A stretch of DNA of 64,000 bases from Candidatus Latescibacterota bacterium (GCA_965206595.1 OZ242214.1:1472001-1536000); one strand, 5' to 3'. Positions 2,273 to 36,290 are shown, counted from the stretch's first letter. Program-made: numbers and translations. The notes: a model not told the origin generated them from the letters alone.

Positions 2273-3504
2273 CCCTGGCAGCCCTCGAACAGGTGGATCG
2301 TTCCGGCAGCCATATTGCCTCCCGGCTGCGCAGGCTGGTAGCCATCCCCACCGTCAATCCTCCCGGGGAACGCTACGGGGAGATGGTGGACTGTCTGGAG
2401 AAATCCTGTGCCGGCCTCGGCATGGAGACGCGCGTTCACCAGGTGCCTGCGAAAACCGCCGAAGCGGCGGGAATCGCTCCGGGCTATCCCCGTTACAATC
2501 TGATTGCGCGGTGGGACGTGGGTGCGGCGCGCACCGTCCACTTCAACGCTCATTACGATGTCGTCCCGGCAGCGGGAAAATGGAAGTTCCCCCCCTTTCA
2601 GCCACAGGTGGAGAACGGCTGGATATACGGGCGCGGTTCCGGAGACATGAAGGGATCGATCGTCGCCCTGCTGACTGCCATCGATTGCCTTCGCCGTAGC
2701 GGCGCGCAGCCGGCGTTCAACATCGAATGCTCATTTACCGCCGACGAGGAGACGGGCGGAGAGCTGGGAGCCGGGTACATCGTTCGCCAGGGACTGGTGA
2801 ATGCCGAGAGTGCAGTCGTGTGCGAAGGAGCTTCCGGCACGCGGGTAGGCCTTGGTCACAACGGCGTACTGTGGCTGTACGTCCATCTTCAGGGAAAACC
2901 GGCGCACGCCTCGAACCCCGACCTAGGTCGCAACGCGTTTGAAGCGATGCTCGCTGTTGGCGGTCACCTGCAGCGACACAAGAAGGAACTGACTACCTCC
3001 GCGAGAAGATATCGTGATTTCAACGGCAAAGACCGCTATCCGACACTGAATATCGGGGGGGTCTTCGGAGGAACCGGCCAGAAGGTCAATACGGTTCCGG
3101 GCGATGCCTTCTTTAGCATCGACCGGCGGGTTCCCCCCAACGAGCGCATCGGGCAGGCGGAACGGGAGCTGCGTTCGAGCATTGCCGTGGGGGCGGCGAC
3201 GCAGCCGCAGGTTCGCTGCCGGGTCGAAACGGCACTGAGGATCGACCCCTGCGTGATGGATGCCGCTCACGATCTGCCGCAGCTGTTTTCCCGCTCCGTC
3301 AAGGCGGTGCGTCGCCGCAGTGCGGGATTTCGCGTCACCAGCGGATTTACCGACCTCCATTTCTTCATCGAGGAAGCCGGCATTCCGGCCATCGGCTACG
3401 GGGTCGACGGCAGGCGCGCCCACGGTGCGGACGAGCGCGTCCGCCTGCGGGATGTCGCCAGCACGGCGAAGACCTACGCCCACTTCATGCTTACGGGGGT
3501 GTGA
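2269..3504 (+). CDS. M20 family metallopeptidase/deacylase (ArgE/DapE-like)
   Basis: FNAHYDVVP, GRGSGDMKG, DEETGG and AHGADE metal-binding motifs. Confidence 0.88.
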   Translation: MTLAALEQVDRSGSHIASRLRRLVAIPTVNPPGERYGEMVDCLEKSCAGLGMETRVHQVPAKTAEAAGIAPGYPRYNLIARWDVGAARTVHFNAHYDVVPAAGKWKFPPFQPQVENGWIYGRGSGDMKGSIVALLTAIDCLRRSGAQPAFNIECSFTADEETGGELGAGYIVRQGLVNAESAVVCEGASGTRVGLGHNGVLWLYVHLQGKPAHASNPDLGRNAFEAMLAVGGHLQRHKKELTTSARRYRDFNGKDRYPTLNIGGVFGGTGQKVNTVPGDAFFSIDRRVPPNERIGQAERELRSSIAVGAATQPQVRCRVETALRIDPCVMDAAHDLPQLFSRSVKAVRRRSAGFRVTSGFTDLHFFIEEAGIPAIGYGVDGRRAHGADERVRLRDVASTAKTYAHFMLTGV

Positions 3505-3510
3505 GCGCGG

Positions 3511-4233
3511 GTGGATGTTTTCAAGGAATTCCTGCGCGTCTCGTACGATCACTTCGGTGGCCTGATCTGCATTAACATCCTGTGGTCGCTGTTCTCAATA
3601 CCTTGGCTCGCCGTCGCCGCGGCCGCGGTTCTGTACGGGGCGGCCCTGCAGGGGGATTGGGCACCTCATGCCCAAGTGCTTGCCCTCGTTCTCGCCACCG
3701 AGTTCGTCTGGTTTGCTCCCCCGACGGTCCTTCTGTTCCTCGCCGCCCAGCAGTGGCTCGATGGTCGCGGGGCTTCATTCAGGTCCTTGGCGGGGCAACT
3801 GCCCGGACACGCCCTGCGCGCCCAGAGTGCGGGACTGGCAATAATGGCGACGACTTGCCTGCTGGCGGTCAACCTCATCTTCTATCACCACCTCGGCGGC
3901 TGGCTGGGAGCGATTCTTTCCGGGCTCATGGGCTGGCTGTTGTTGGGGTTGTTCCTGGTCTCGCTATACGTCATACCGATGCTGCTCGCCGGCGAGACCG
4001 GCCTCCGGGGCGCCAGCCTCGGCAGTCTGCTCTTCGTCGTTTCCAACCCGGGCAGGTCGCTGGTTCTGCTCGCCCTCGTCGCAAGTCTGCTTATCCTCGG
4101 ACTGGCCTCGGGAATCGGACTGCTGTGCGGTATCTCCGCGGCCATTGCGCTGCTGGAGAGCGCCTGGGTGCAACGCCTTGCCCCGGAAGCGGAGGGGTGC
4201 AGTTCCACCTTGAGGAACGGCAATGAGAGTTGA
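3511..4233 (+). CDS. Integral membrane protein, DUF624/YesL-like
   Basis: Several TM helices; NILWSLFSIP and PPT motifs. Confidence 0.55.
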   Translation: MDVFKEFLRVSYDHFGGLICINILWSLFSIPWLAVAAAAVLYGAALQGDWAPHAQVLALVLATEFVWFAPPTVLLFLAAQQWLDGRGASFRSLAGQLPGHALRAQSAGLAIMATTCLLAVNLIFYHHLGGWLGAILSGLMGWLLLGLFLVSLYVIPMLLAGETGLRGASLGSLLFVVSNPGRSLVLLALVASLLILGLASGIGLLCGISAAIALLESAWVQRLAPEAEGCSSTLRNGNES

Positions 4234-19592: not shown

Positions 19593-20312
19593 ATGGATCT
19601 CTCCATCGTCGTTCCCGCGTACAACGAATCCCGAAAAATCACCGAAACCCTCGACGCGATTACCTCCTTTCTCGATGATCGCCCATGGCGGTGTGAGATC
19701 ATCGTCGTAGACGACGGCAGCGACGACTTCACCGCAGAGATCGTCGATGAAGCGTCAAGAGGCGACCAGCGCATCCACTGCCTGCGCAACGAGAGGAACT
19801 GCGGCAAGGGGTACTCCATCCGCAAAGGGGTATTGCATTCCCGGGGCGCCGCTGTCGGCTTCATCGACGCCGACAACAAGACGGAAATCAGCGCTCTCGA
19901 TCAGGTAATGGAACAACTCGGCAATCTCGGAGTCGACGGGGTTCTGGGGGACCGCACGCTGCCCGGCACGGACATCAAGCAAGCTCGAAGGGCGTACCGT
20001 CAATGGGGCTCGGAATTGTTTCGGTACATGCTCCGGACCTGCGTGGGGCTCCCCGGATTTCCCGACACACAGTGTGGCTTCAAGTTCTTCAGACAGCCGG
20101 TCGCCAAGGACCTGTTCCAGCGACAATCCGTAGACGGCTACATGTTCGACGTCGAGGTCCTCTTGCTGGCGGTTCGGTCCGGGTACAACCTCGTGCGGAT
20201 TCCGATAGTATGGCGGGACGATCCCGACAGCCGCTTCAAACCGATTACCGGCATGCTGAGAAATCTCGGCGACCTGCATCGAATACGGTGGAGCGCAGGT
20301 CGCTCCAAATAA
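19593..20312 (+). CDS. Glycosyltransferase family 2 (polyprenyl-phosphate glucosyltransferase-like)
   Basis: SIVVPAYNE, VVDDGS, DAD, DTQCGFK and FDVEVL motifs. Confidence 0.9.
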   Translation: MDLSIVVPAYNESRKITETLDAITSFLDDRPWRCEIIVVDDGSDDFTAEIVDEASRGDQRIHCLRNERNCGKGYSIRKGVLHSRGAAVGFIDADNKTEISALDQVMEQLGNLGVDGVLGDRTLPGTDIKQARRAYRQWGSELFRYMLRTCVGLPGFPDTQCGFKFFRQPVAKDLFQRQSVDGYMFDVEVLLLAVRSGYNLVRIPIVWRDDPDSRFKPITGMLRNLGDLHRIRWSAGRSK

Positions 20313-20319
20313 ATGGGGG

Positions 20320-21108
20320 ATGCCTGAATTCCTGTTTCTCGTGGCCTTGGGTGCGGTTGTCGGCACCGTGGGGAGCCTCGTCGGCGCCGGGGGTGGGGTC
20401 ATTCTGGTTCCCGTTCTCATTCTCCTCTATGAGGGGGAGGTGGCGAGCGAGATTACCTCGCTGTCCCTGGTAGTGATTTTCTTCACCGCCTTTTCCGGCT
20501 CTGTCACCTACGGTTGGATGCGCCGTATCGATTACGTTTCCGGGATTGCCTTCGCCCTGGCGGGAATCCCCACCGCAATGGCGGGAGCCTACCTGTCGCA
20601 ACACGTGCCGAGACTCTACTTCGATCCGCTGATGGCGGCGATCCTGGTCCTGCTCGGCGGTTACACTTTTGTCAACCCGCGTTCGCGCAAAGCGAACACC
20701 GAGAATTCTACGGACATCGAGGCAAACACCAAGCGACAATTGCGGCTCGGGTGCATTCTCAGCGCCTACATAGGGGCCGTTTCGGGTATCCTCGGAATCG
20801 GAGGAGGAATTATCCGCGTGCCGGTCATGGTGAAGGTCCTTCGCTTCACCCCTCACGTCGCTACCGCCACATCGCTTTTCGCCCTCACAATCGTCTCCTT
20901 TGCCGGTACCCTCGTGCACGCCTCGGGGGGGCGCTTCGAGGGCCAAAGCGACAAGGCGTTGTTTTTGGCGATAGGTGTGATGGTCGGAGCCCAGATCGGC
21001 GCCAAACTTTCCACCTTGGTGCAGGGCCCCCTGCTGCTGCGGCTGCTCTCGGCGCTTCTTGTGGGCCTCGGTGCCCAGCTTTTTTACACATTGGCACAGC
21101 GCTGGTAA
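20320..21108 (+). CDS. Sulfite exporter TauE/SafE family protein
   Basis: GAGGGVILVP and GIGGGIIRVP repeats, ATATS motif, about 8 TM segments. Confidence 0.88.
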   Translation: MPEFLFLVALGAVVGTVGSLVGAGGGVILVPVLILLYEGEVASEITSLSLVVIFFTAFSGSVTYGWMRRIDYVSGIAFALAGIPTAMAGAYLSQHVPRLYFDPLMAAILVLLGGYTFVNPRSRKANTENSTDIEANTKRQLRLGCILSAYIGAVSGILGIGGGIIRVPVMVKVLRFTPHVATATSLFALTIVSFAGTLVHASGGRFEGQSDKALFLAIGVMVGAQIGAKLSTLVQGPLLLRLLSALLVGLGAQLFYTLAQRW

Positions 21109-21140
21109 CCGTCGCCGGCTAATCGTTACGAGGAGAGAAG

Positions 21141-21951
21141 ATGATGTCATTCAACATGGCCTACAGCACGCTCAGGTGGCAGCTACCGGACCTCGAGCCT
21201 GCCCTGGTCGCCCTGAGGGAAGCCGGGTGGGATAAGCTGGGAAGGGCGCCTGCCGCTCGACTGGCTCGGAACCCCTAGCCGCCTCATGCAGGTGTGCGCA
21301 AACGCCGGCATGCCGATGACGATCTTCACCGCGGTCGGGTCGCCTGACGGCAGGGATTTTGCACATGTGGAGAGGAATCGCCGACGCATGGAGTTCGCCG
21401 CCGAGGTGGGGGTCCAATGCTTCATGTTCATGAGTGGGCCAAAACCGGAGGGAAGGGAGGCCGACGACGACGAGATCCGCCGTGCAGCAGAGGGTGCAGA
21501 CGAGTGGGCGGAGTACGCCGCTGCGCGGGGACTAGAGATAAGCTATCACATTCACACCAACACGCTGGTCGACTCCATCGCCCAGTGGCAGCTGTACATG
21601 AGCTGTCTGAAAAACGCCAAGCTCTGCATCGATGTCTCCCACGCCCGGCTTTGGGGTTACGACCCAGTCGCATCCCTTCGGGATTTCTGGAGCCAGCTCA
21701 ACTACGTCCACCTCCAGGACTTCAGCTCCTGCACGCGTGGTGAGAACGGTCTCTACCATCCGGTCTGGTGTGACGTCGGCGCCGCGGAAAACGTCGACTT
21801 CCCCGCAGTTCTCAAGGCACTGGAGGGCTTGGGCTACGAGGGCGTTATCACCAGCTGCCCGGGAGAGCCCGTGCCAGGAGCGGACGATCCGATCAGCGAG
21901 GCTCGGCGCAGCGCTGCGACCCGTGCTTACCTGCGGGGGTTGGGTTACTGA
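21141..21951 (+). pseudogene. Sugar phosphate isomerase/epimerase (TIM barrel) with an apparent +1 frameshift near 21234
   Basis: SD AGGAG then ATG at 21141 gives MMSFNMAYSTLRW...EAGWD. The protein continues in the +1 frame as WEGRLPLDWLG...YHIH..DVSH..YVHLQD. Confidence 0.7.
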
Positions 21952-23940: not shown

Positions 23941-24177
23941 ACCTATTCGCGGGCCTCAGAATTGCAATTGGATGAATTTCCATGGAGCGAAACGAAAACA
24001 TAAAAAACCGCAACGGAGAGCCCGGCAAAATGTCGCAGTAGGAGAAAAACAGCCTGGAAGCCTTTTCAGCGAAAGAGCTGGCGGTTATATTCGGTTATAA
24101 TAACCACTAAAATCGCATCTGAATGCGAGTCGACGTGATCTGCCAAACGTCAAACCCCGAACCACAGGAGGTATCAT

Positions 24178-24699
24178 ATCGCAAAACAGCAACAGTCGTT
24201 TACGAGGATCAACGACGCCATTCGCGTCCCGGAGATTCGACTGATCAATTCCGACGGGACTCAGGTTGGCGTCGTGGGAAAATCGGAGGCGATGGCGATG
24301 GCGGAGGAAGAAGATCTCGATCTCGTAGAGGTCGCGCCGGAAGCCAGGCCGCCCGTTTGCCGTATCATGGACTACGGAAAATACCGCTTCGACAAAGAGA
24401 AAAAAGCCAAGGAGGCGCGCAAAAAAGGGCAGGCTGTGCAGATGAAGACGGTGCGAATCAAGACCGCCAACATCAGCGAGCACGACATGGAGTACCGCCT
24501 TGGTCACATTCGGGAGTTTATCGGCAAGGGAAATCTCGTGAAAATCAGCATGCGCTTCATGGGCCGCCAGGTGGCCTACCGCGACCGCGGCCGGCAGGTC
24601 ATGCAGGAGGTCGCGGAGAAACTCCTTGACGTTGCCGTAACCCACCAGCATCCGCAAATGGAAGGCCGCGAGATGTCCATGATCTTGCGGCCTTTGTAA
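24178..24699 (+). CDS. infC: Translation initiation factor IF-3 (non-canonical ATC start)
   Basis: AGGAGG at 24166-71, then in-frame ATC at 24178; RINDAIRVPEIRLI and DLVEVAPEARPPVCRIMDYGKY motifs. Confidence 0.93.
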   Translation: MAKQQQSFTRINDAIRVPEIRLINSDGTQVGVVGKSEAMAMAEEEDLDLVEVAPEARPPVCRIMDYGKYRFDKEKKAKEARKKGQAVQMKTVRIKTANISEHDMEYRLGHIREFIGKGNLVKISMRFMGRQVAYRDRGRQVMQEVAEKLLDVAVTHQHPQMEGREMSMILRPL

Positions 24700-25142
24700 C
24701 ACCGAAGTGAGTTCGCCGGATCGGCGGGCGGCGACATCCCCCTGTTGATCCTGAGAAAAGACTTCCGGTATCCAACCCCTCTCTGATTGCCCCCTGCTTA
24801 GGAGGATCGACCTCCGATTCCACATCCAAACACGGGCGAGATTGCCTTTGGTCGTTGCGCTTGGGATACGCAGCTTCGTCATGTAACGAATCCCTGTCTC
24901 CGATTGTGAATCGGTGACAACCCTCGTTAGGATTCCGCGTTTTCCGGCTTCAAAATCCGCTTCGTACCACCCGCTCCTGCCCAGGCATGCATGGCTTTCT
25001 GCCTGAAAGAAAATCCAGATAGACATTCGACCAGTGGCCCATACCGAATGACAGGACAGGATTGTCGTATCCGCAGGAAGCACCCCTTGCTCGCGTGCTT
25101 GGATTCGGTCTCGGTTACCTGTCACTACCAAGCGATTTCACT

Positions 25143-27130
25143 TTAGCTCTTGAGCAGATGCGACAAGGGTGTGCTCTTGGCATCCGTCCATTCCAGCGAC
25201 GACTGGAAAGGAGCGCTCAGCTGGTCCTTTTGGGGGCAATAGCTGACATGGGGCGAAAAGTAGGAGTATAGTGCCGAATTGCGAGGGTTCGGGGAACTGT
25301 TCGGTCCCGAACTATGCACTAGTGTCTCGTCCCATGAATTAGCTTAAAAAGTCTGGTCATCTTTGCGAGAATCGATTCGGCCGTCGCCGTCCACACAAAC
25401 GGGTGTGATTGGGCGTTATAGCGGTCGGTGAATTCCTGAATGTTGGCGATCAGGTCCTTCACCTTCTTGAAGGTCCCACGGCGGATGGCTTTCTGCGTGA
25501 GGATGCCGAACCAGATCTCCACCTGGTTGAGCCAAGAGGCGTAGGTCGGTGTATAGTGAACGTGGTATCGCGGACGCGCTGCGATCCACCGTTTGACCTT
25601 TTCGTGCGTGTGCGTGGCGTAGTTATCTACGACGAGATGGATGTCAAGGTCTTTGGGGACGTTTTGATCTATGTATTTGAGGAACTGCAGGAATTCCTGG
25701 TGCCGATGCCGGGGTTTGCATTGGGTCAGGACCTTGCCCGATGCGATCTCGAGCGCCGCGAACAAGGTCGTGGTGCCGTGCCGGATATAGCTGTGCGTAA
25801 CGCTTTCCACATAGCCCAGGCCCAAAGGCAGAATCGGCTGCGTCCGTTCCAGGGCTTGGATCTGGCTCTTCTCGTCGACGCATAACACCATGGCCTTGTC
25901 CGGAGGGTTCAGGTAGAGGCCTACGATGTCTCTGACTTTGTCCACAAAAAAAAGGGTCGTTGGACAGCGTGAAGTGCTTCTGCCGATGCGGCTGCAGACC
26001 AAACGCTTTCCATACCCGTTGAACAGTGGACTTGGAGAGGTTGATCTCGGCGGCGAGGGAACGGCACGTCCAGTGCGTGGCCCCCTTCGGTGGGTGCTCG
26101 AGAGTCGTATGAATCAAAGCGGCGACCTTCTCATCGCTTATCGACCGCGGAGACCCCCGGGGCGCAGTTCATCGTAGAGCCCCATCAGGCCTTGCTCGCA
26201 GAAACGACGGCGCCACTTGCCAACCGAAGCGCCCGACAGCCCAAGATGCTGACCGATCTGTTGATTGGTGAGCCCCTCATCGCTCATCAAGACGATCTTG
26301 GCTCGCCGCACATGCGCATGAGGCAGGCTACGGGAACGGGCCATGGATTCGAGTTGGGCACGAACTTCCTCACTGAGGTCGAGCGGCTCCAGGGGACGTC
26401 CCATTGCCATAGGTTCCTCCTTGCGGTATCGCTACATAGGAACCTACTGAGGAAATCATATTTATTCAATATATTCCTGGGACGGGACACTAGGAGACTA
26501 TGAAAGAAGAGCGCCGAACCGGCAGCCAGAGGAACGTCGATCTGGGTGTCGAGATCGATATCTTGGCGCTCGGTGAGAGACTCGTTCTGCCTCACGAGGA
26601 TTCTCCCCCAATCCTGTAGGCCCCATGCGTGACTGCGCGGGATGATCTTGAAGCAGCCGTTACCCGCCGTTGCCTCGGTCAGGGCAATGCTCACGGTAAC
26701 GAGAGCAGGAGGATCGATGGGCCAGTACGCGGAATCCTGATGCAGCGCGTGGGCCGAACCGTGAAACGCAGGCTTGAGCATCAGGGTACTTCGGAATAGC
26801 AAAAGATCGAGGGAATTGAGCAGCCTCTGGGCGATTTTTATCACCCTGGAGTGAACTGACAAGACGTTTGAACAGGTCCGAGTGGGTCCCCGTGTCTTCG
26901 ATTTTTCGAAGCACCGGAATTCCCCGATCGCCGTCAAAAGCGCTCTGACCATGAGGTTCGGGTTGAAAACTGCTCCCCGCCAAACCCCCGAGCGTCCTGA
27001 GTTCCGCAGCGACCTGATGTAGTCTGTCCACCTCCGCGTAACAGTCCTCGACTTCGGCAGGCGACAGCAGATCACGGATGACCAAGTACCCCTCGATGGA
27101 GAAGAAGTCGATCTGTTCTGCTGTTATCAA
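25143..27130 (-). pseudogene. Phytanoyl-CoA dioxygenase (PhyH-like, Fe/2OG) gene, frameshifted near 26855 and split by IS630
   Basis: 5' part MITAEQIDFFSIEGYLV...HQDSAYW...GSALFFHSLL resumes beyond the IS as VHSSGPNSSPNPRNSALYSY, with a stop at 25143. Confidence 0.82.
25319..26493 (-). mobile_element. IS630-family insertion sequence (transposase broken into three ORFs)
   Basis: Ends CTAGTGTCTCGTCCCA and TGGGACGGGACACTAG form an inverted repeat with 1 mismatch; CTAG at both ends; DEKSQIQAL, VDNYATH and SWLNQVE DDE motifs. Confidence 0.93.
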
Positions 27131-28181: not shown

Positions 28182-29390
28182 TTGAACAAGGTTTCCCTTT
28201 CCATAAATAGCCACATACTCATTGTCGGCGGGGGGATCGTCGGTCTCGCCATTGCTTACCGGATGCTCGTTCGTTTTCCTGGCATTCGGATTACCGTTCT
28301 GGAGAAGGAGAAGGAGCTCGCCTTCCACCAGACCGGGCGCAACAGCGGGGTGCTTCACGCGGCTCCCTATTACAAACCGAACTCTTCCAAAGCCCTCCTC
28401 TGCCGCGCGGGATTGAGGGCGCTGACGGAGCTTGCCCGGGAACAGGGGATTCCCTACGAAATCTGCGGCAAGGTCATCGTGGCCAAGGAAGCGTCGGAGG
28501 AGGAGAGGCTACGCAGGCTGTTTTTGACCGCCCGGCAGAACGGAGTGAACTGCGAGCTGTTAGGACGTGAGGCTCTGCTGGACCGCGAGCCCCACGTACG
28601 GGGTACGCAGGCGATCCTCGTTCCCGACACGGGCATCATAGACTATCGGGCAGTTGCCAATCGGCTGGCGGAGTTGATAGCCGCTGCGGATGGGGAAGTT
28701 CGCCTCGGCACCAAGGTCACTGGGTTTCGCCGGGACGGTGAGCGGCAAATCGTGTCAACGGATACAGGGGATTTTCGCGGCGATCTAGTCGTCAATGCTG
28801 CGGGTTTGCACAGCGATCGCCTCTGCGAGAAAGCAGGAGGCCGGCCCGCAGCAAAGATTCTGCCCTTCAGGGGTGAGTATTTCGCCTTGAAACCGGAAGC
28901 CCATTTTCTGTGCAACCATCTCATCTACCCTGTCCCCGACCCCAACCTGCCTTTTCTCGGTGTCCACTTCACACGCATGATAGAGGGAGGTCGCGAGTGC
29001 GGGCCGAATGCCGTGCTCGCCTTTGCGCGGGAGGGCTACGAGTTCTGGGACTTCGATGCTCGCGATTTCTTCGAAACGGTGACCTACCGGGGGTTTTTGA
29101 GAATGGCCTGGCACTGGCGGAAGGTCGGAATGGCCGAGATGTACCGTTCGCTGAGCAAGGCGGCGTTCGTCCGCGAACTGCAGGAGTTCATCCCCGCCGT
29201 GGCGGCGGAAATGCTAGTGCCTGCTCCCGCGGGAATCCGGGCGCAGGCGGTGTTCCCCGACGGGGAGCTCGCCAAAGACTTCGAGATTCTCATCGAGGGT
29301 CCTTTCGTGCACATTCTCAACGCACCCTCTCCGGCAGCGACCAGTTCGCTGGCGATCGCGGATCGCGTGATCGACGGGATAGAGTTCTGA
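28182..29390 (+). CDS. lhgO: L-2-hydroxyglutarate oxidase-like FAD oxidoreductase
   Basis: IVGGGIVG, HQTGRNSGVLH, PFRGEY, LIYPVPDPNLPFLGVHFT and NAPSPAATSSLAI motifs. Confidence 0.9.
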   Translation: MNKVSLSINSHILIVGGGIVGLAIAYRMLVRFPGIRITVLEKEKELAFHQTGRNSGVLHAAPYYKPNSSKALLCRAGLRALTELAREQGIPYEICGKVIVAKEASEEERLRRLFLTARQNGVNCELLGREALLDREPHVRGTQAILVPDTGIIDYRAVANRLAELIAAADGEVRLGTKVTGFRRDGERQIVSTDTGDFRGDLVVNAAGLHSDRLCEKAGGRPAAKILPFRGEYFALKPEAHFLCNHLIYPVPDPNLPFLGVHFTRMIEGGRECGPNAVLAFAREGYEFWDFDARDFFETVTYRGFLRMAWHWRKVGMAEMYRSLSKAAFVRELQEFIPAVAAEMLVPAPAGIRAQAVFPDGELAKDFEILIEGPFVHILNAPSPAATSSLAIADRVIDGIEF

Positions 29391-29395
29391 ACCCG

Positions 29396-29929
29396 ATGGC
29401 ATTTCGAGTAAAATGACGAGGCAAGCTTACCTACTATTACAGTGGCGAGAAACCGGTTCTTTCGGCTCTGGTCACCGAAGATCTGGGGAATGGCGATCTC
29501 AGAATTCATTTTGCGGGCCTGACCGGTGGTCACTCCGCGACTGGGATTCTGGGACTCGACGGGGTCCATACCATGAATCCGGCAATGGAGGTGGGACTGG
29601 TGTTCAGGTGCTGGGAGAAATGGCTCCGCGATGCAGGGATATGCGATTCGATTTCCAAGATCGACTTCATCGAGGTGCATGCTTTCGCCGCGCAGCCGAA
29701 GGCGCCCAACCCGGTGCTGGCTCCGCAGCGGTTCGCCGACGAACAGCAGCGCCTATACAATGAATATGCGGAGGCGTACAGCAGCTTTTTCCACGAACAG
29801 ATGCCGGAGTGTGGCGTGCCATCGCGCTTCACCGTCCACGTCGTCGACTTTCCCGACAAGGCCGCCTCGTACGAGTTCTACAGCGTCGGCCTCTACCAGA
29901 AGAGCCTCCACGCGGAGGATGAGGGATGA
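29396..29929 (+). CDS. Divergent RidA/YjgF-fold protein with an in-frame TGA at codon 7 (readthrough, Sec, or pseudogene)
   Basis: ATG 5 nt after the lhgO stop: MAFRVK*RGKLTYYYSGEKPVLSALV...IHFAGLTG...YSSFF..PSRFTVHVVDFP..SYEFYSVG, resembling Rid YS.AV....SGQ and PARSTV.V..LP....VEIEA. Confidence 0.55.
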
Positions 29930-31194
29930 GCCGAAGCTTCGACCTCCCATTTGGACAGCGGGTTTTAAAGCTTTCTCTGCCTGAAGCCGCGGAGGTCGAT
30001 TTGCTGATGCCAGCGGCGCTTGCAGCCGAATCCGACGGAGCATCGATTGTCAGCCGGGCGCTGAGAGAGCCGATCGGCAGTCCGCCCCTGGACGAGGTGG
30101 TCACTTCGGGGCAGACAGTAGCGGTGGTAACGAGCGACAACACCAGGCCCTGCCCATCCCGTCGGCTGCTACCTCCGATTCTCCGCGAACTGCAAGCGGG
30201 TGGAATATCCGCAGACGCCACCACGGTCGTTGTGGCGCTCGGACTGCATCGACCGCTGTCGAACCAGGAACTGCGCGAACTCGTGGGACCCGAGGTGCAC
30301 GATTCAGTGGAGGTTGTCAACCACGATCCGGCCAATGTGGTTCGGATAGGATGGACCAGCGCAGGCACACCGGTGGACCTGTTTCGACCTGTCGTTGGCG
30401 CCGATGTCCGGGTAGGGTTGGGAAATATCGAGTTCCACTATTTCGCCGGGTATTCCGGCGGAGCGAAATCGATTCTCCCTGGGTGCGCCGGAGAAGAGAC
30501 CGTGAGTGCCAACCACGCTCTGATGGTCGAGCTGGGAGCCCGGGCGGGTGTTCTCGAAAGCAACCCGGTCCGGGTCGACCTCGAGGAGGGGGTGGCGATG
30601 ATCGGCCTCGATTTCATCCTCAATGCCATCGTCGACAGCGACCACCGGCTGGTTGACGCGGTGGCTGGTAACGCCACCAATGCCCATCGCCTCGGATGCA
30701 GCATTATGGCCCGGCGAGACGCCGTGGGGGTAGACGGCAAGGCGGATATGGTGGTCGTGAGTGCAGGCGGCAAGCCGTCGGACCTGAACCTGTATCAGGC
30801 CCAAAAGGCGCTTGAAAACGCCGGCGCGGTCGTCAGGGACGGCGGTGTCATTATCTGGGTGGCCGAGTGCCTGGAGGGTTACGGTAATTCGACCTTCGAA
30901 CAGTGGATGCGACAGGCGAACACACCTGAGCAGGTGCTGGAGCGCATCGCCCGGAGGTTCATTCTGGGAGGACACAAGGCCGCGGCCATCGCGTCGGTCC
31001 TGCTCCGAGCGGAAGTCTACCTCGTGTCGGCGATGGGGGTAAAGCTGGATGCCTGCGGAATAATCGGCTTCGAAAGTATCGACTCAGCCGTCCGAGCCGC
31101 TCTGGAGAGGGTCGGCCCCGACCCGGCCGTCGCCGTCATCCCCCACGGGGGTTCGACCTTTCCGATACCGGTCGGAACAACAGAAGCTGCGTGA
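29926..31194 (+). CDS. larA: LarA-family nickel-pincer-dependent 2-hydroxy acid racemase/epimerase
   Basis: SDNTRP, ALGLHR, EFHYFAGYSGGAKSILPG, ANH and NLYQAQK catalytic motifs. Confidence 0.9.
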   Translation: MSRSFDLPFGQRVLKLSLPEAAEVDLLMPAALAAESDGASIVSRALREPIGSPPLDEVVTSGQTVAVVTSDNTRPCPSRRLLPPILRELQAGGISADATTVVVALGLHRPLSNQELRELVGPEVHDSVEVVNHDPANVVRIGWTSAGTPVDLFRPVVGADVRVGLGNIEFHYFAGYSGGAKSILPGCAGEETVSANHALMVELGARAGVLESNPVRVDLEEGVAMIGLDFILNAIVDSDHRLVDAVAGNATNAHRLGCSIMARRDAVGVDGKADMVVVSAGGKPSDLNLYQAQKALENAGAVVRDGGVIIWVAECLEGYGNSTFEQWMRQANTPEQVLERIARRFILGGHKAAAIASVLLRAEVYLVSAMGVKLDACGIIGFESIDSAVRAALERVGPDPAVAVIPHGGSTFPIPVGTTEAA

Positions 31195-33917: not shown

Positions 33918-35244
33918 CACTACTGTCCGGTTGAGCGCTTTGAAGAATCGTGTAAGTAATGCATCTACAATGAGTTGTGCGAATAAATGACCGTTGTCGA
34001 TTTGAAATCGATCGTAGATTTGGGCCCTTCAGCACTGCATTAACCCGTGAGGGAATGGCCGATGCATACGGGACGAATGGTATTCTCACAGCTCATGGAT
34101 TTCCTACCCAGGCACGAGTTCAACAGATGCGTACATCGGTACCATGGCAATTACAGGACCCGGCACTTCAAGTGTCGCGATCAGTTTCTGAGCATGGCCT
34201 TTGCGCAGCTCACCGGTCGGGAAAGCCTACGGGACATCGAGACCTGTTTACGCGCGATGCAGCCCAAGCTGTATCATGCCGGCATTCGATACCCGGTTTC
34301 CAGGAGCACCCTGGCCGATGCCAACGAGAACCGGGACTGGCGCCTCTATGCCGACTTCGCTCAGGTGCTCATTGGCCACGCCCGCAAGCTATACAGCCAA
34401 GACGACTTCGGAGTACAACTCGAAGAGACGGCGTATGTCTTCGATTCCAGCACCATCGATCTGTGTCTTTCGCTGTTTCCGTGGGCCCGATTCCGTCAGC
34501 GCAAAGCCGCCATCAAGCTCCACACGTTGATGGATCTACGCGGCAATATCCCCTGTTTTATTCGCATTACAGAGGGGAAGACGCACGATGTCGGCCTGCT
34601 CGACGAATTGATTCTGGAACCGGGCGCCTTCTACATCATGGACCGCGGGTACATCGACTTTGCGCGGCCGTATACCTTCACGCAGCAGGCCGCGTTCTTT
34701 GTCATCCGCGCCAAACGCAATCTGGATTATACTCGGCGTAGGTCGCGCCCAGTCGACAAAAGCACCGGCTTGCGCAGCGACCAGACCATCGTACTGCACG
34801 GACCCGGGACCTCACAAGACTACCCCGATGTCCTGCGCCGCATCAGCTACGTCGACCTCGAGACGGCGAAGCGGTTCGTTTTTCTCACCAACCATTTCGT
34901 CCTTCCCGCCTTGACCATCCCGCAGTTGTACAAATGCCGCTGGCAGGGGGAGTTGTTCTTCAAGTGGATCAAACAACATCTGCAAATCAAAGCGTTCTTC
35001 GGCACCTCCGAGAACGCGGTCAAGACCCAGATCTGGATCGCTATCAGCACGTACGTGCTCGTGGCCATCGTCAAGAAGCAGCTACACGTCGACCGCCGTC
35101 TGGCCGAAATCCTGCAAATCTTCACCGTTTCGCTGTTCGAGAAAGTCGATATTTTACAATTGCTTACGGAAATCAGCTCCCAAAACCAATCAGAGCATCT
35201 TTGTAACCAGTTGAATTTGTTCGACTTATAACCGGACAGTAGTG
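33918..35244 (+). mobile_element. IS4-family insertion sequence, apparently intact
   Basis: Perfect 15-bp TIR CACTACTGTCCGGTT / AACCGGACAGTAGTG; 9-bp direct repeat GGTTCAACC at 33909-17 and 35245-53. Confidence 0.95.
34062..35231 (+). CDS. IS4-family transposase (DUF4372 + DDE)
   Basis: FAQLTGRESLRDIE, DSSTIDL, MDRGY and YKCRWQGELFFKWIKQ (YREK motif). Confidence 0.93.
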   Translation: MHTGRMVFSQLMDFLPRHEFNRCVHRYHGNYRTRHFKCRDQFLSMAFAQLTGRESLRDIETCLRAMQPKLYHAGIRYPVSRSTLADANENRDWRLYADFAQVLIGHARKLYSQDDFGVQLEETAYVFDSSTIDLCLSLFPWARFRQRKAAIKLHTLMDLRGNIPCFIRITEGKTHDVGLLDELILEPGAFYIMDRGYIDFARPYTFTQQAAFFVIRAKRNLDYTRRRSRPVDKSTGLRSDQTIVLHGPGTSQDYPDVLRRISYVDLETAKRFVFLTNHFVLPALTIPQLYKCRWQGELFFKWIKQHLQIKAFFGTSENAVKTQIWIAISTYVLVAIVKKQLHVDRRLAEILQIFTVSLFEKVDILQLLTEISSQNQSEHLCNQLNLFDL

Positions 35245-35253
35245 GGTTCAACC

Positions 35254-36290
35254 TATACTTGAGAGAACGCCAGAGACGCTCGATAAAGACGTTGTCCTTC
35301 CGTCTGCCCTTGCCGTCCATCGAGATCTCTACCCCGGCTTACTCGAGAACCTCGGTGAACTCCCGACTAGTGAACTGGCTGGCCCTGATCGGTGTTGAGG
35401 ATTTCCGGTTTCCGTAGCGGGCCAGCGCCTCCTGCAGGGCCTCCCGGCAGAACGTACTGTCCTGGGTGTTCGACAGCCGCCACGGAAGCACCGTGCGTGT
35501 CGCCCAGTCCATGATCACCACCAGACAGTGAAAACCTCGTTGCATCGGGATATAGGTCACGCCGGCACACCACACCTAGTTCGGCCGCTCGATCCTCAGA
35601 TGGCCGAGCCGATACGGATAGACCCGATGGGACCCATCCGGCGACGCGACGTCTGCGGCTTGCGATAAAGGGCCGTCAGTCCCATCTGTCGCATCAATCG
35701 ACCGCACGCGCTTGCGCGCCCGACCCCATGGCCTTGGCGCCGGGTGACGGGTCATCTGCCGGGACCCATACCATGGCGTGGCCAGAAACTGCTCGTCGAT
35801 GCGGCGCATCACCTGCCGGTTGAAGAAACTCTCCCCTCGACCCGCGTAGTAGTAGGAGGAGCGCGAAAGGGAGACCAAGTTGCACTGGCGCACGATTGGG
35901 AGCTGGGGATGATCCGGATCGATCATCGCTTCCCTTCGGTCGCGGCTCAACGACCGAAGGCGCGTGACAAAAAATCGTTCTCCACGGTCAGCTGCCGAAC
36001 TTGGCGTGCAGCGCTTCCACCTCCGTTTCATGCTCGGCGGCGCTGGAAGATGTCTTGCGGGCGAACACCTCCGGAAGGCTCTCCCGGGCTTGCCGTTTCC
36101 ATTGCGCAATCACGTTGGGGTGCAGGTTGTGCTTGGCAGCGGGCTCGGCCATCGTCTGGTCGCCGACCAGGGCCTACAAAGGCGACTTTGGCCTTGAATT
36201 GGGCGGAGAAGCTACGTCGTTTTCCCATGTCTCCAGTCCTTCCGCAGAGAGTCGGATCCACCTATCGAAACTGTCCGAATTCCGGGTCCA
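35254..36290 (-). mobile_element. Degenerate IS3-family element (multiple frameshifts, 3' truncated)
   Basis: OrfA MGKRRSFSAQFKAKVA; OrfB fragments PWYGSRQM, IMDWATR, PEILNTDQG and MDGKGR..DNVFIERLWRSLKY lie in different frames. Confidence 0.88.

Follow-up and report, generated by a model that had tools for sequence, protein, structure and literature searches.

Three tightly linked genes on the plus strand of a 64,000-nucleotide (nt) stretch of a Candidatus Latescibacterota genome (GCA_965206595.1, OZ242214.1:1472001-1536000; this whole stretch is referred to as the window, and positions are counted from its first letter) may jointly encode a module that racemises and oxidises a 2-hydroxy-dicarboxylate, 2-hydroxyglutarate (2-HG) being the probable one, in which an L-specific oxidase would have displaced a D-specific dehydrogenase, a reading to which we give an even chance of being correct. 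The locus comprises an lhgO-type gene for a flavin adenine dinucleotide (FAD)-dependent L-2-hydroxy-acid (L-2-hydroxyglutarate) oxidase/dehydrogenase (28182..29390; 402 amino acids (aa), TTG start; Pfam DAO and NCBIfam NF008726), a middle gene of predicted Rid/YjgF-fold type that we call Mid (29396..29929; 177 aa; characterised by its translation and predicted structure, and without a Pfam or NCBIfam family) and a gene for a LarA-superfamily 2-hydroxy-acid racemase of a Mar2/LarAH6-like clade, dependent on nickel-pincer nucleotide (NPN) as cofactor (29926..31194; 422 aa, Lar_N and LarA_C domains). In the proposed module the NPN-dependent LarA homolog would interconvert the D and L forms of a 2-hydroxy-dicarboxylic acid and the LhgO-type flavoenzyme would oxidise the L form, yielding the 2-oxo acid, so that one stereospecific dehydrogenase would serve both enantiomers; the substrate would most likely be 2-HG, the alternative being malate or a close C4 relative. 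Mid, as a trimeric Rid-like protein, would assist the dehydrogenase step as an optional accessory and, keeping a carboxylate-binding arginine, would probably bind or process a 2-oxo, 2-imino or enol carboxylate. Homology, predicted structure and gene order are the basis of all these functional statements.

The tight linkage that an earlier, sequence-only reading had proposed is confirmed to the nucleotide: the lhgO stop codon (29388-29390) is followed 5 nt later by the ATG of Mid at 29396, and the ATG of larA (29926-29928) overlaps the stop codon of Mid (29927-29929) in a 4-nt ATGA (29926-29929), the stop codon being TGA in all three genes. From this gene order we infer that the three genes are co-transcribed as one operon. 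A scan of the locus gave no plus-strand promoter-like site 5' of lhgO (the counts being at chance level) and terminator-like sites in no greater number than expected (3 as against 4.1), and no RNA run holding the locus is listed among 24 runs.

The first gene is a strong member of the LhgO family by its profile scores (Pfam DAO, E 2.8e-58; NF008726, L-2-hydroxyglutarate oxidase, 493.3 bits with a cut-off of 299, a result with which the genome search agrees), and L-2-HG oxidation is predicted for its product. Its closest solved relative is the L2HGDH of Drosophila (dmL2HGDH, 8w75; E 4.6e-78), in which Ser88, His92, Tyr289, Leu299, His302 and Arg393 bind 2-oxoglutarate and which is inactive on L-malate, L-lactate and D-2-HG (PMC10726252; this and the other papers cited by accession are represented here by excerpts of their text). 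The equivalents of these six residues are all identical in gene 1 (phmmer alignment to 8w75; motifs NSGVLH, IYPVP, FLGVH and GIRAQA), the arginine for C5-carboxylate binding being among those kept, and the earlier naming of the gene as lhgO is upheld by them as well as by the profile score. A genome-wide profile search found exactly one LhgO above the cut-off in the genome of the window, and composition gives no sign of a recent transfer of lhgO (G+C content at third codon positions 0.72, as against 0.70-0.71 in the neighbours).

As the joint action of racemase and oxidase should be reflected in the company that their genes keep, we consider the arrangement of the locus in related genomes, which are metagenome-assembled genomes (MAGs) carrying depositor labels (the loci being labelled mostly Latescibacterota and Gemmatimonadota) and, being kin, are not independent of one another. 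A scan for Mid loci with one genome per species returned 193 loci, the best 80 of which were analysed, their neighbours being scored by tblastn, for which the queries were the window proteins and representatives of the most frequent neighbours; arrangements were counted in those 67 loci whose flanks reached 3 kb or more upstream and 1.5 kb or more downstream. The commonest arrangement (27/67) is an FAD/iron-sulfur (FAD/Fe-S) dehydrogenase gene followed by Mid and larA, and another 22 loci have the FAD/Fe-S gene and Mid without larA. The LhgO-Mid-LarA order of the window recurs in two loci, which are the other two genomes of its genus; Mid stands beside a PRK09237-type amidohydrolase in eight loci and behind a DgaE-like pyridoxal phosphate (PLP)-dependent ammonia-lyase in three, with other arrangements in the remaining five. 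A LarA ortholog thus adjoins Mid in 29 of the 67 loci, and a dehydrogenase lies upstream in every one of the 29 (27 YdiJ-like FAD/Fe-S enzymes, 2 LhgO). The FAD/Fe-S enzyme (~958 aa; FAD_binding_4, FAD-oxidase_C, 4Fe-4S and CCG domains) has the D-2-HG dehydrogenase YdiJ as its best NCBIfam model (624 bits, cut-off 1350), and the NCBIfam models that match it best are, without exception, for hydroxy-acid or glycerol-3-phosphate dehydrogenases. In one locus (L048) a 117-bit FAD/Fe-S-like piece lies ~46 nt 5' of Mid, between Mid and the gene for ZapA, and is possibly a deletion remnant.

The window and its relatives share conserved flanks, with ZapA (minus strand) upstream and DinB, GcvT-like and SbcC genes (all minus strand) downstream, by which the same slot can be followed into relatives that have no Mid. 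There the FAD/Fe-S gene abuts or overlaps larA in three genomes (G010, G012 and G016) and larA stands alone at the slot in two (G004 and G020), the LarA orthologs of these Mid-less relatives being 51-56% identical. Wherever Mid and LarA both lie on resolvable contigs (G000, G001, G002, G009, G014 and G015; G018 is too fragmented) they are adjacent. Judged by these arrangements, the FAD/Fe-S and larA genes appear translationally coupled where Mid is missing, Mid is dispensable for the dehydrogenase-racemase pair, and the cassette would be ancestral, being widely distributed over the related loci that were examined.

Given that the flanks of the window are those of the FAD/Fe-S loci, its lhgO occupies the FAD/Fe-S slot. 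The genome of the window has no FAD/Fe-S ortholog (best match 32% identity, over one domain), and no FAD/Fe-S remnant was found in the window (best tblastn E 0.038, located elsewhere). LhgO above the cut-off occurs in 7 of the 41 related genomes, all in three genera (g1, g3 and g9); the LhgO proteins of g3 and g9 are only 42-45% identical to that of the window and have neither Mid nor LarA nor the FAD/Fe-S gene nearby, and none of 80 metagenomic loci with LhgO relatives (at most 55% identity) has such neighbours. The linkage is found in this genus only (3 genomes) and, in view of the unlinked copies elsewhere, represents a genus-level event. Furthermore, all five searched relatives that have a LarA ortholog and lack the FAD/Fe-S enzyme (G000-G002, G004 and G020) possess LhgO; in G004 and G020, where no FAD/Fe-S enzyme was found anywhere in the genome, it sits away from the slot. 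By these gene comparisons, in the genus of the window an L-specific LhgO has displaced the D-type FAD/Fe-S dehydrogenase, a swap that would be tolerable or neutral because the racemase equilibrates both enantiomers.

Taken together, the strongest conclusion that we would draw from gene order is that racemase and dehydrogenase act on one substrate, because the two are coupled even without Mid, because a dehydrogenase accompanies all 29 Mid-LarA pairs and because the dehydrogenase was exchanged beside an unchanged racemase. The idea of the sequence-only reading that the racemase feeds the oxidase consequently survives in part and in a more general form: LarA is tied to a stereospecific flavin dehydrogenase (at all 29 loci, and by abutment in the three Mid-less relatives) and the genes for its NPN cofactor are present (see below), but the lhgO linkage is confined to one genus and LarA is of the Mar2/LarAH6 type with a GHK signature, a substrate shared with LhgO being something that we infer. 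Likewise, the refuting case of homologs that are unlinked elsewhere holds for lhgO outside the genus and does not hold for the dehydrogenase-racemase module, which the neighbourhood survey recovers widely.

The third gene, by its alignments, is an intact LarA homolog that is closest to the malate racemase Mar2 and not to the known 2-HG racemases. It matches Lar_N (E 7.8e-63) and LarA_C (E 1.8e-21), its best NCBIfam model is NF052593 (malate racemase, LarAH6; 487 bits, under the cut-off of 500), ahead of LarAH5, LarA and LarAH10, and two orthologs from related loci score 522.4 (above 500) and 496.6 (below) with the same model, which makes the clade a borderline one. The closest solved relative is Mar2 (6d6z; E 1.2e-96, residues 6-414), followed by 2yjg (E 4.7e-66). 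The catalytic residues of LarA are D72, H108, H174 and K298 and its NPN-binding residues R75, K184 and H200 (LarA numbering; PMC7583248); the motifs SDNTRP, GLHR, EFHYF, GGAK, ANH, YQAQK and GGHK are kept in 31 of 31 LarA orthologs and the catalytic and NPN motifs align with Mar2, in agreement with the earlier observation that the catalytic motifs are intact. No larB, larC or larE gene lies in the window, as had also been noted; all three were found elsewhere on the same 7.05-Mb contig, scattered at ~0.19, 1.10 and 6.73 Mb (the window being at 1.472-1.536 Mb), with scores above the cut-offs (NF033503 289.9, PF01969 437.4 and TIGR00268 324.8 bits, respectively). The genome encodes three further Lar_N proteins (lactate-racemase-like, divergent, and a group-22 isomerase).

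For Mar2, Y172, K173, Q293 and K351 are proposed to contact the substrate, and a GHK signature is associated with malate racemases as NQT is with the groups of 2-HG racemases (PMC7583248). Gene 3 keeps Y172, Q293 and K351, has Phe in place of K173 (as do all 31 orthologs) and reads GGHK in the helix-14 region, where the NQT of LarAH7a/11/32 is not found (logo positions taken from the excerpted text of PMC7583248). The H-Y-F, Q-K and G-H-K signature is common to the 31 orthologs, whichever dehydrogenase adjoins. 2-HG is suggested by the LhgO residues and by the likeness of the FAD/Fe-S enzyme to YdiJ, and malate or a close relative by the LarA signature.

On the Mar-type part of this signature (Y, Q and K as in Mar2) one could build a C4 module, which we consider distinctly unlikely, in which the racemase would equilibrate malate, the flavoenzyme (of FAD/Fe-S or LhgO type) would yield enol-oxaloacetate, and Mid would tautomerise the latter to its keto form as a functional analogue of FAHD/OAT1. 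The replacement of K173 by Phe throughout the clade speaks against such a module. Moreover, we know of no Rid protein that acts as a keto-enol tautomerase, although no search was aimed at one, and this counts against it as well. The formation of enol-oxaloacetate from malate by a flavoenzyme, and the clustering of the tautomerase with 2-HG dehydrogenase genes, are documented (PMC10825186), several D-2-HG dehydrogenases (D2HGDHs) oxidise D-malate besides D-2-HG (PMC9504171), and the Rid arginine binds 2-oxo-acid carboxylates (PMC4433059), all of which would agree with the C4 module. YdiJ itself is strict for D-2-HG (PMC9504171). On the other hand, the LhgO of the window keeps the arginine for a C5 carboxylate and its solved relative does not act on L-malate (PMC10726252).

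The middle protein is where family models and structure prediction diverge. Against all Pfam and NCBIfam models it has no match at E<=0.1, a genome-wide search with PF01042 (Ribonuc_L-PSP) retrieves three ordinary Rid genes at other loci and not Mid, and a search of the Mid family against the sequences of Protein Data Bank (PDB) chains returned noise only (best E 0.0094, a T-cell receptor chain). Homologs number 1630 at E<=0.001 (typically 173 aa), those among the matches listed being all unnamed or 'hypothetical', and they are 67-70% identical even in MAGs labelled Gemmatimonadota, Chloroflexota, Verrucomicrobiota and Alphaproteobacteria; at the level of 50% clusters there are 130 representatives at E<=0.001, mostly fragments, which describes a compact family. 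The ESM Atlas holds a single 'hypothetical protein' cluster for Mid (0.77). An AlphaFold2 model built from 55 sequences (predicted local distance difference test, pLDDT, 80; predicted template-modelling score, pTM, 0.77) finds Rid/YjgF proteins as its best Foldseek matches in the PDB (E ~3e-4, template-modelling score normalised to the target up to 0.74), and in VIA-align, which does not depend on Foldseek and was run over 48,161 chains, the best 16 are Rid/YjgF proteins (Z 10.1-7.5), followed by a chorismatase; with 9bk1, 116 of 116 residues align at 2.4 A. A profile comparison by hhalign with 17 canonical Rid proteins from the same and related genomes (probability 66%, E 5.4e-5) pairs the PAR-F-TV of Mid with the PARxTV of Rid, and a subsequent Glu with the Rid Glu. 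R137 of Mid (within PARFTV), which is kept in at least 90% of the 55 family members, thereby aligns with Rid Arg105, the type of arginine that is essential for imine hydrolysis and sets RidA and Rid1-3 apart from Rid4-7, and that in TdcF binds amino acids and 2-oxobutanoate by their carboxylates (PMC4433059). A three-copy model of Mid scored 0.86, as against 0.00 for the best of 3 controls (contact agreement at least 93%, pLDDT at least 82), a success that may owe to its likeness to solved Rid trimers; in this model the interfaces include the conserved residues 83, 85-86, 88, 131-146 and 153. These data support the view that Mid is a remote member of the Rid superfamily, unseen by the family hidden Markov model (HMM) and with a predicted chorismate-mutase-like Rid fold. 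The Rid fold formerly proposed for Mid is accordingly recovered by structure comparison (Foldseek and VIA-align) and missed by the family models (Pfam, NCBIfam and PF01042).

The surroundings of Mid are diverse. The protein is nearly unchanged in unrelated contexts (an amidohydrolase, the DgaE-like PLP lyase, an amidase, an M81 peptidase, ABC permeases and sugar-acid genes), and seven fusions (P0124, P0152, P0189, P0192, P0218, P0236 and P0246) offered no informative partner domain, the domains being a histidine phosphatase, Ig-like repeats and MerR, with none in four of the seven. One MAG labelled Gemmatimonadetes (L075) has tandem Mid copies (3156-3650 and 3728-4219; 72% and 62% identity to that of the window) after an FAD/Fe-S gene. 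In three MAGs labelled Devosia/Rhizobiales (L108, L110 and L111) Mid follows a gene for a DgaE-family (SelA-related) PLP ammonia-lyase, and L110 additionally has, divergently oriented upstream, one gene for a serA-type D-3-phosphoglycerate dehydrogenase and another for a class-V aminotransferase; D-2-HG is known to arise from SerA (PMC9504171). A Mid paralog (44-51% identity) occurs in six relatives (L246-L251; genomes G021, G008, G014, G024, G011 and G018) in quite different contexts, beside an Ldh_2 dehydrogenase, GFO/IDH/MocA oxidoreductases and an M20 peptidase, or beside a 350-385-aa protein, an NTP-transferase and a GHMP kinase; these contexts are inconsistent among the six and gave no functional lead.

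A Rid-fold protein that keeps the essential arginine invites the further idea, put forward in the sequence-only reading, that the substrate of the DAO-family oxidase is an amino acid or amine, the resulting imine being hydrolysed by the Rid-like protein. Rid genes do cluster with those of FAD-dependent amine oxidases, RidA and Rid2 hydrolyse imines made by oxidases (PMC4433059), and in other phyla Mid adjoins the DgaE-like PLP ammonia-lyase. We nevertheless regard an amino substrate as very unlikely: gene 1 reaches the equivalog score of LhgO and conserves the full set of six 2-oxoglutarate-binding residues, the usual partner of Mid elsewhere is a GlcD-type FAD/Fe-S enzyme whose NCBIfam matches are confined to hydroxy-acid and glycerol-3-phosphate dehydrogenases, and the LarA-superfamily reactions described in the excerpted literature are all on 2-hydroxy acids.

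Several observations weigh against a shared 2-HG substrate. Since LarA is closest to Mar2 (with GHK and not NQT) and dmL2HGDH is inactive on L-malate, LhgO and LarA may differ in substrate; the FAD/Fe-S enzyme, at 624 bits against a cut-off of 1350, is too far below the YdiJ model to be considered its equivalog. The confinement of the LhgO linkage to one genus makes the swap a single evolutionary event among genomes that are not independent. All pairwise combinations of the genes, as well as LarA alone, occur, which also fits independent functions. Lastly, Mid is 67-70% identical in wholly different contexts, and its role would therefore not be pathway-specific; we argue that it may be a general handler of 2-oxo, 2-imino or enol carboxylates.

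Part of these points can be accommodated by a metabolite-repair island, in which co-expressed enzymes would act on different damaged or unusual metabolites related to the tricarboxylic acid cycle, with no hand-over of substrate: LhgO would remove L-2-HG, the Mar2-like racemase would convert D-malate to L-malate, and the Rid-like protein would clear a reactive imine or enamine. This we hold to be a possibility worth serious weight, if not a probable one. The difference in substrate between the nearest characterised relatives (L-2-HG for LhgO and dmL2HGDH, malate for Mar2) and the presence of every gene combination at one slot, LarA alone included, are in line with it, and there is precedent in diverse bacteria, where FAHD/OAT1 repair genes cluster with genes for a predicted L2HGDH, D2HGDH or both (PMC10825186), Rid being itself a known damage-pre-emption family (PMC4433059). 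Separate tasks would, however, leave unexplained why a dehydrogenase stands at each of the 29 loci with adjoining Mid and LarA and why the FAD/Fe-S gene abuts or overlaps larA without Mid, and the exchange of a D- for an L-type enzyme beside an unchanged racemase is most simply read as a shared substrate. Moreover, LhgO was not found outside g1, g3 and g9 (7 of 41 genomes), and without a route through the racemase most of these genomes could not remove L-2-HG.

A bolder synthesis, which we regard as rather improbable, would make Mid a new branch of Rid that processes a 2-oxo-dicarboxylate in the nascent enol or imine form in which flavin 2-hydroxy-acid dehydrogenases and PLP lyases release it (an analogue of FAHD/OAT1, unrelated in fold) and, in addition, would make the LarA clade a third, independent lineage of 2-HG racemases inside the malate-racemase clade.

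Returning to the racemise-and-oxidise module, its middle gene carries in this species an in-frame TGA, followed by C, at codon 7 (29414..29416, plus strand), recognised by translation, by ortholog alignment and in the contigs of sequencing runs, which the earlier account of the gene had overlooked. From the ATG at 29396 the frame reads MAFRVK, the stop codon and then RGKLTYYYSGEK; it is closed by the TGA after six codons and is open again over 29417-29926 (170 codons). Between the TGA and 29573 there is no ATG, GTG or TTG, the longest conventional open reading frame (ORF) starting with the ATG at 29573 (118 aa). Mid orthologs start with MAFRVKRRGKL, which identifies the ATG at 29396 as the start of the family, and their codon 7 specifies Arg, Lys, Gln or Glu; in a genome of the same genus it is CGG, as against TGA in the window. 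The TGA is real and not an assembly error: four runs (X1, X4, X5 and X9), taken from four studies, have contigs that span 29414-29416 with no difference at the site, two of the four carrying a single-nucleotide polymorphism of their own at 29243 and a third five other nearby differences (run X1 is perhaps the source sample of the assembly). Downstream of the TGA there is no sign of decay in Mid; lineage-unique amino-acid changes number 3 in the window copy and 6 in the sister genome, and the ratio of nonsynonymous to synonymous substitution rates (dN/dS) between the two is 0.128 for Mid and 0.132 for lhgO. Of the termination contexts in E. coli, UGA-C is the weakest. Since the UGA is real, Mid in this species has either been inactivated very recently or is made as a low-level product by read-through. 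Selenocysteine and a changed genetic code were both rejected as explanations of the TGA: where the window has the stop, homologs carry R, K, Q or E instead of Cys, all three genes end in TGA, and no Rfam element was found at E<=1, save for one chance match on the opposite strand.

Around the three genes, transposase ORFs flank the region on both sides: one of the DDE_3 family (25319-26002, minus strand, 227 aa) and one with DUF4372 and DDE_Tnp_1 (34047-35231, plus strand, 394 aa). A gene of the PhyH family (Fe/2-oxoglutarate dioxygenases), which is a recurrent neighbour of the cassette, is represented by an ORF at 26287-27075 (minus strand) that matches positions 70-199 only of the 213 in the profile; its orthologs in related loci match 1-212, and the window copy, beside the DDE_3 transposase, may be truncated. 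Three putative ORFs, all on the minus strand, have no Pfam match at E<=0.001 (24085-25131, 348 aa; 20245-21150, 301 aa; 35576-36109, 177 aa).

In comparison with known systems, the first gene resembles LhgO/YgaF of E. coli and L2HGDH (8W75) in its NF008726 score and its six 2-oxoglutarate-binding residues, but here it lies beside a racemase gene and a Rid-like gene. The known bacterial context of lhgO is csiD-lhgO-gabDTP, in glutarate/lysine catabolism. YdiJ has the same GlcD plus Fe-S/CCG architecture as the enzyme that fills the slot in 49 of the 67 related loci, although the slot enzyme is no equivalog of it and has no copy in the genome of the window. Mar2 (LarAH6; Thermoanaerobacterium thermosaccharolyticum, 6D6Z) is like gene 3 in its catalytic and NPN-binding residues and in Y172, Q293 and K351 (GHK), and differs from it in having K173 where gene 3 has Phe, gene 3 scoring 487 against the LarAH6 cut-off of 500. 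With Rid/YjgF/UK114 proteins (RidA and Rid1-3; PA5083, TdcF and RutC) Mid shares the predicted fold, the arginine and the Glu, and a predicted homotrimer; it is ~45 residues longer than canonical Rid proteins, with a long inserted helix, is 8-17% identical to the solved ones, and is partnered by hydroxy-acid dehydrogenases and not by PLP dehydratases or amine oxidases.

Placing an NPN racemase next to a flavin dehydrogenase that is stereospecific is a logic shared with lactate LarA and its FAD-dependent D-lactate dehydrogenase/electron-transfer flavoprotein (LarAH group 1), and the lct operon of Acetobacterium woodii is a further example of a lactate racemase-dehydrogenase pair. Unlike these lactate pairs, the present locus combines another racemase clade with other families of dehydrogenase, shows a binding signature of dicarboxylate type and has a Rid-like gene in addition. 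A COG0277 FAD/FMN dehydrogenase accompanies 35% of group-1 LarA genes (PMC7583248, Table S1), and in the context table for groups 1-22, as excerpted from the same source, neither 2-HG-type dehydrogenases nor a Rid-like gene appear as partners of LarA. Clusters of FAHD/OAT1 likewise place a small product- or damage-handling enzyme beside genes for L- and/or D-2-HG dehydrogenases, the differences being that its fold is FAH and not Rid and that no racemase is mentioned in the excerpted text (PMC10825186). In the literature searched we found no description of a cluster of lhgO, Rid-like and LarA genes, nor of this LarA clade beside 2-HG-type dehydrogenases, of the D-to-L swap or of the Rid-like family.

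The locus is, by gene order and homology, a local variant of a widespread cassette that probably allows one stereospecific enzyme to oxidise both enantiomers of a hydroxy acid, and it would extend the racemase-dehydrogenase logic known for lactate to a dicarboxylate-type LarA clade. The exchange of the dehydrogenase for one of opposite stereospecificity, with the racemase retained, is a natural experiment that provides unusually direct genomic evidence for a shared substrate, and for a large LarA clade as yet uncharacterised it leads to a testable prediction of the substrate (2-HG versus malate). The highly conserved Mid family (more than 1,600 members, ~70% identical across phyla, without a Pfam or NCBIfam model) offers a lead on non-canonical roles of Rid proteins. 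Moreover, we consider that the cassette may bear on the clearance or use of D- and L-2-hydroxy acids in the uncultured bacteria that carry it.

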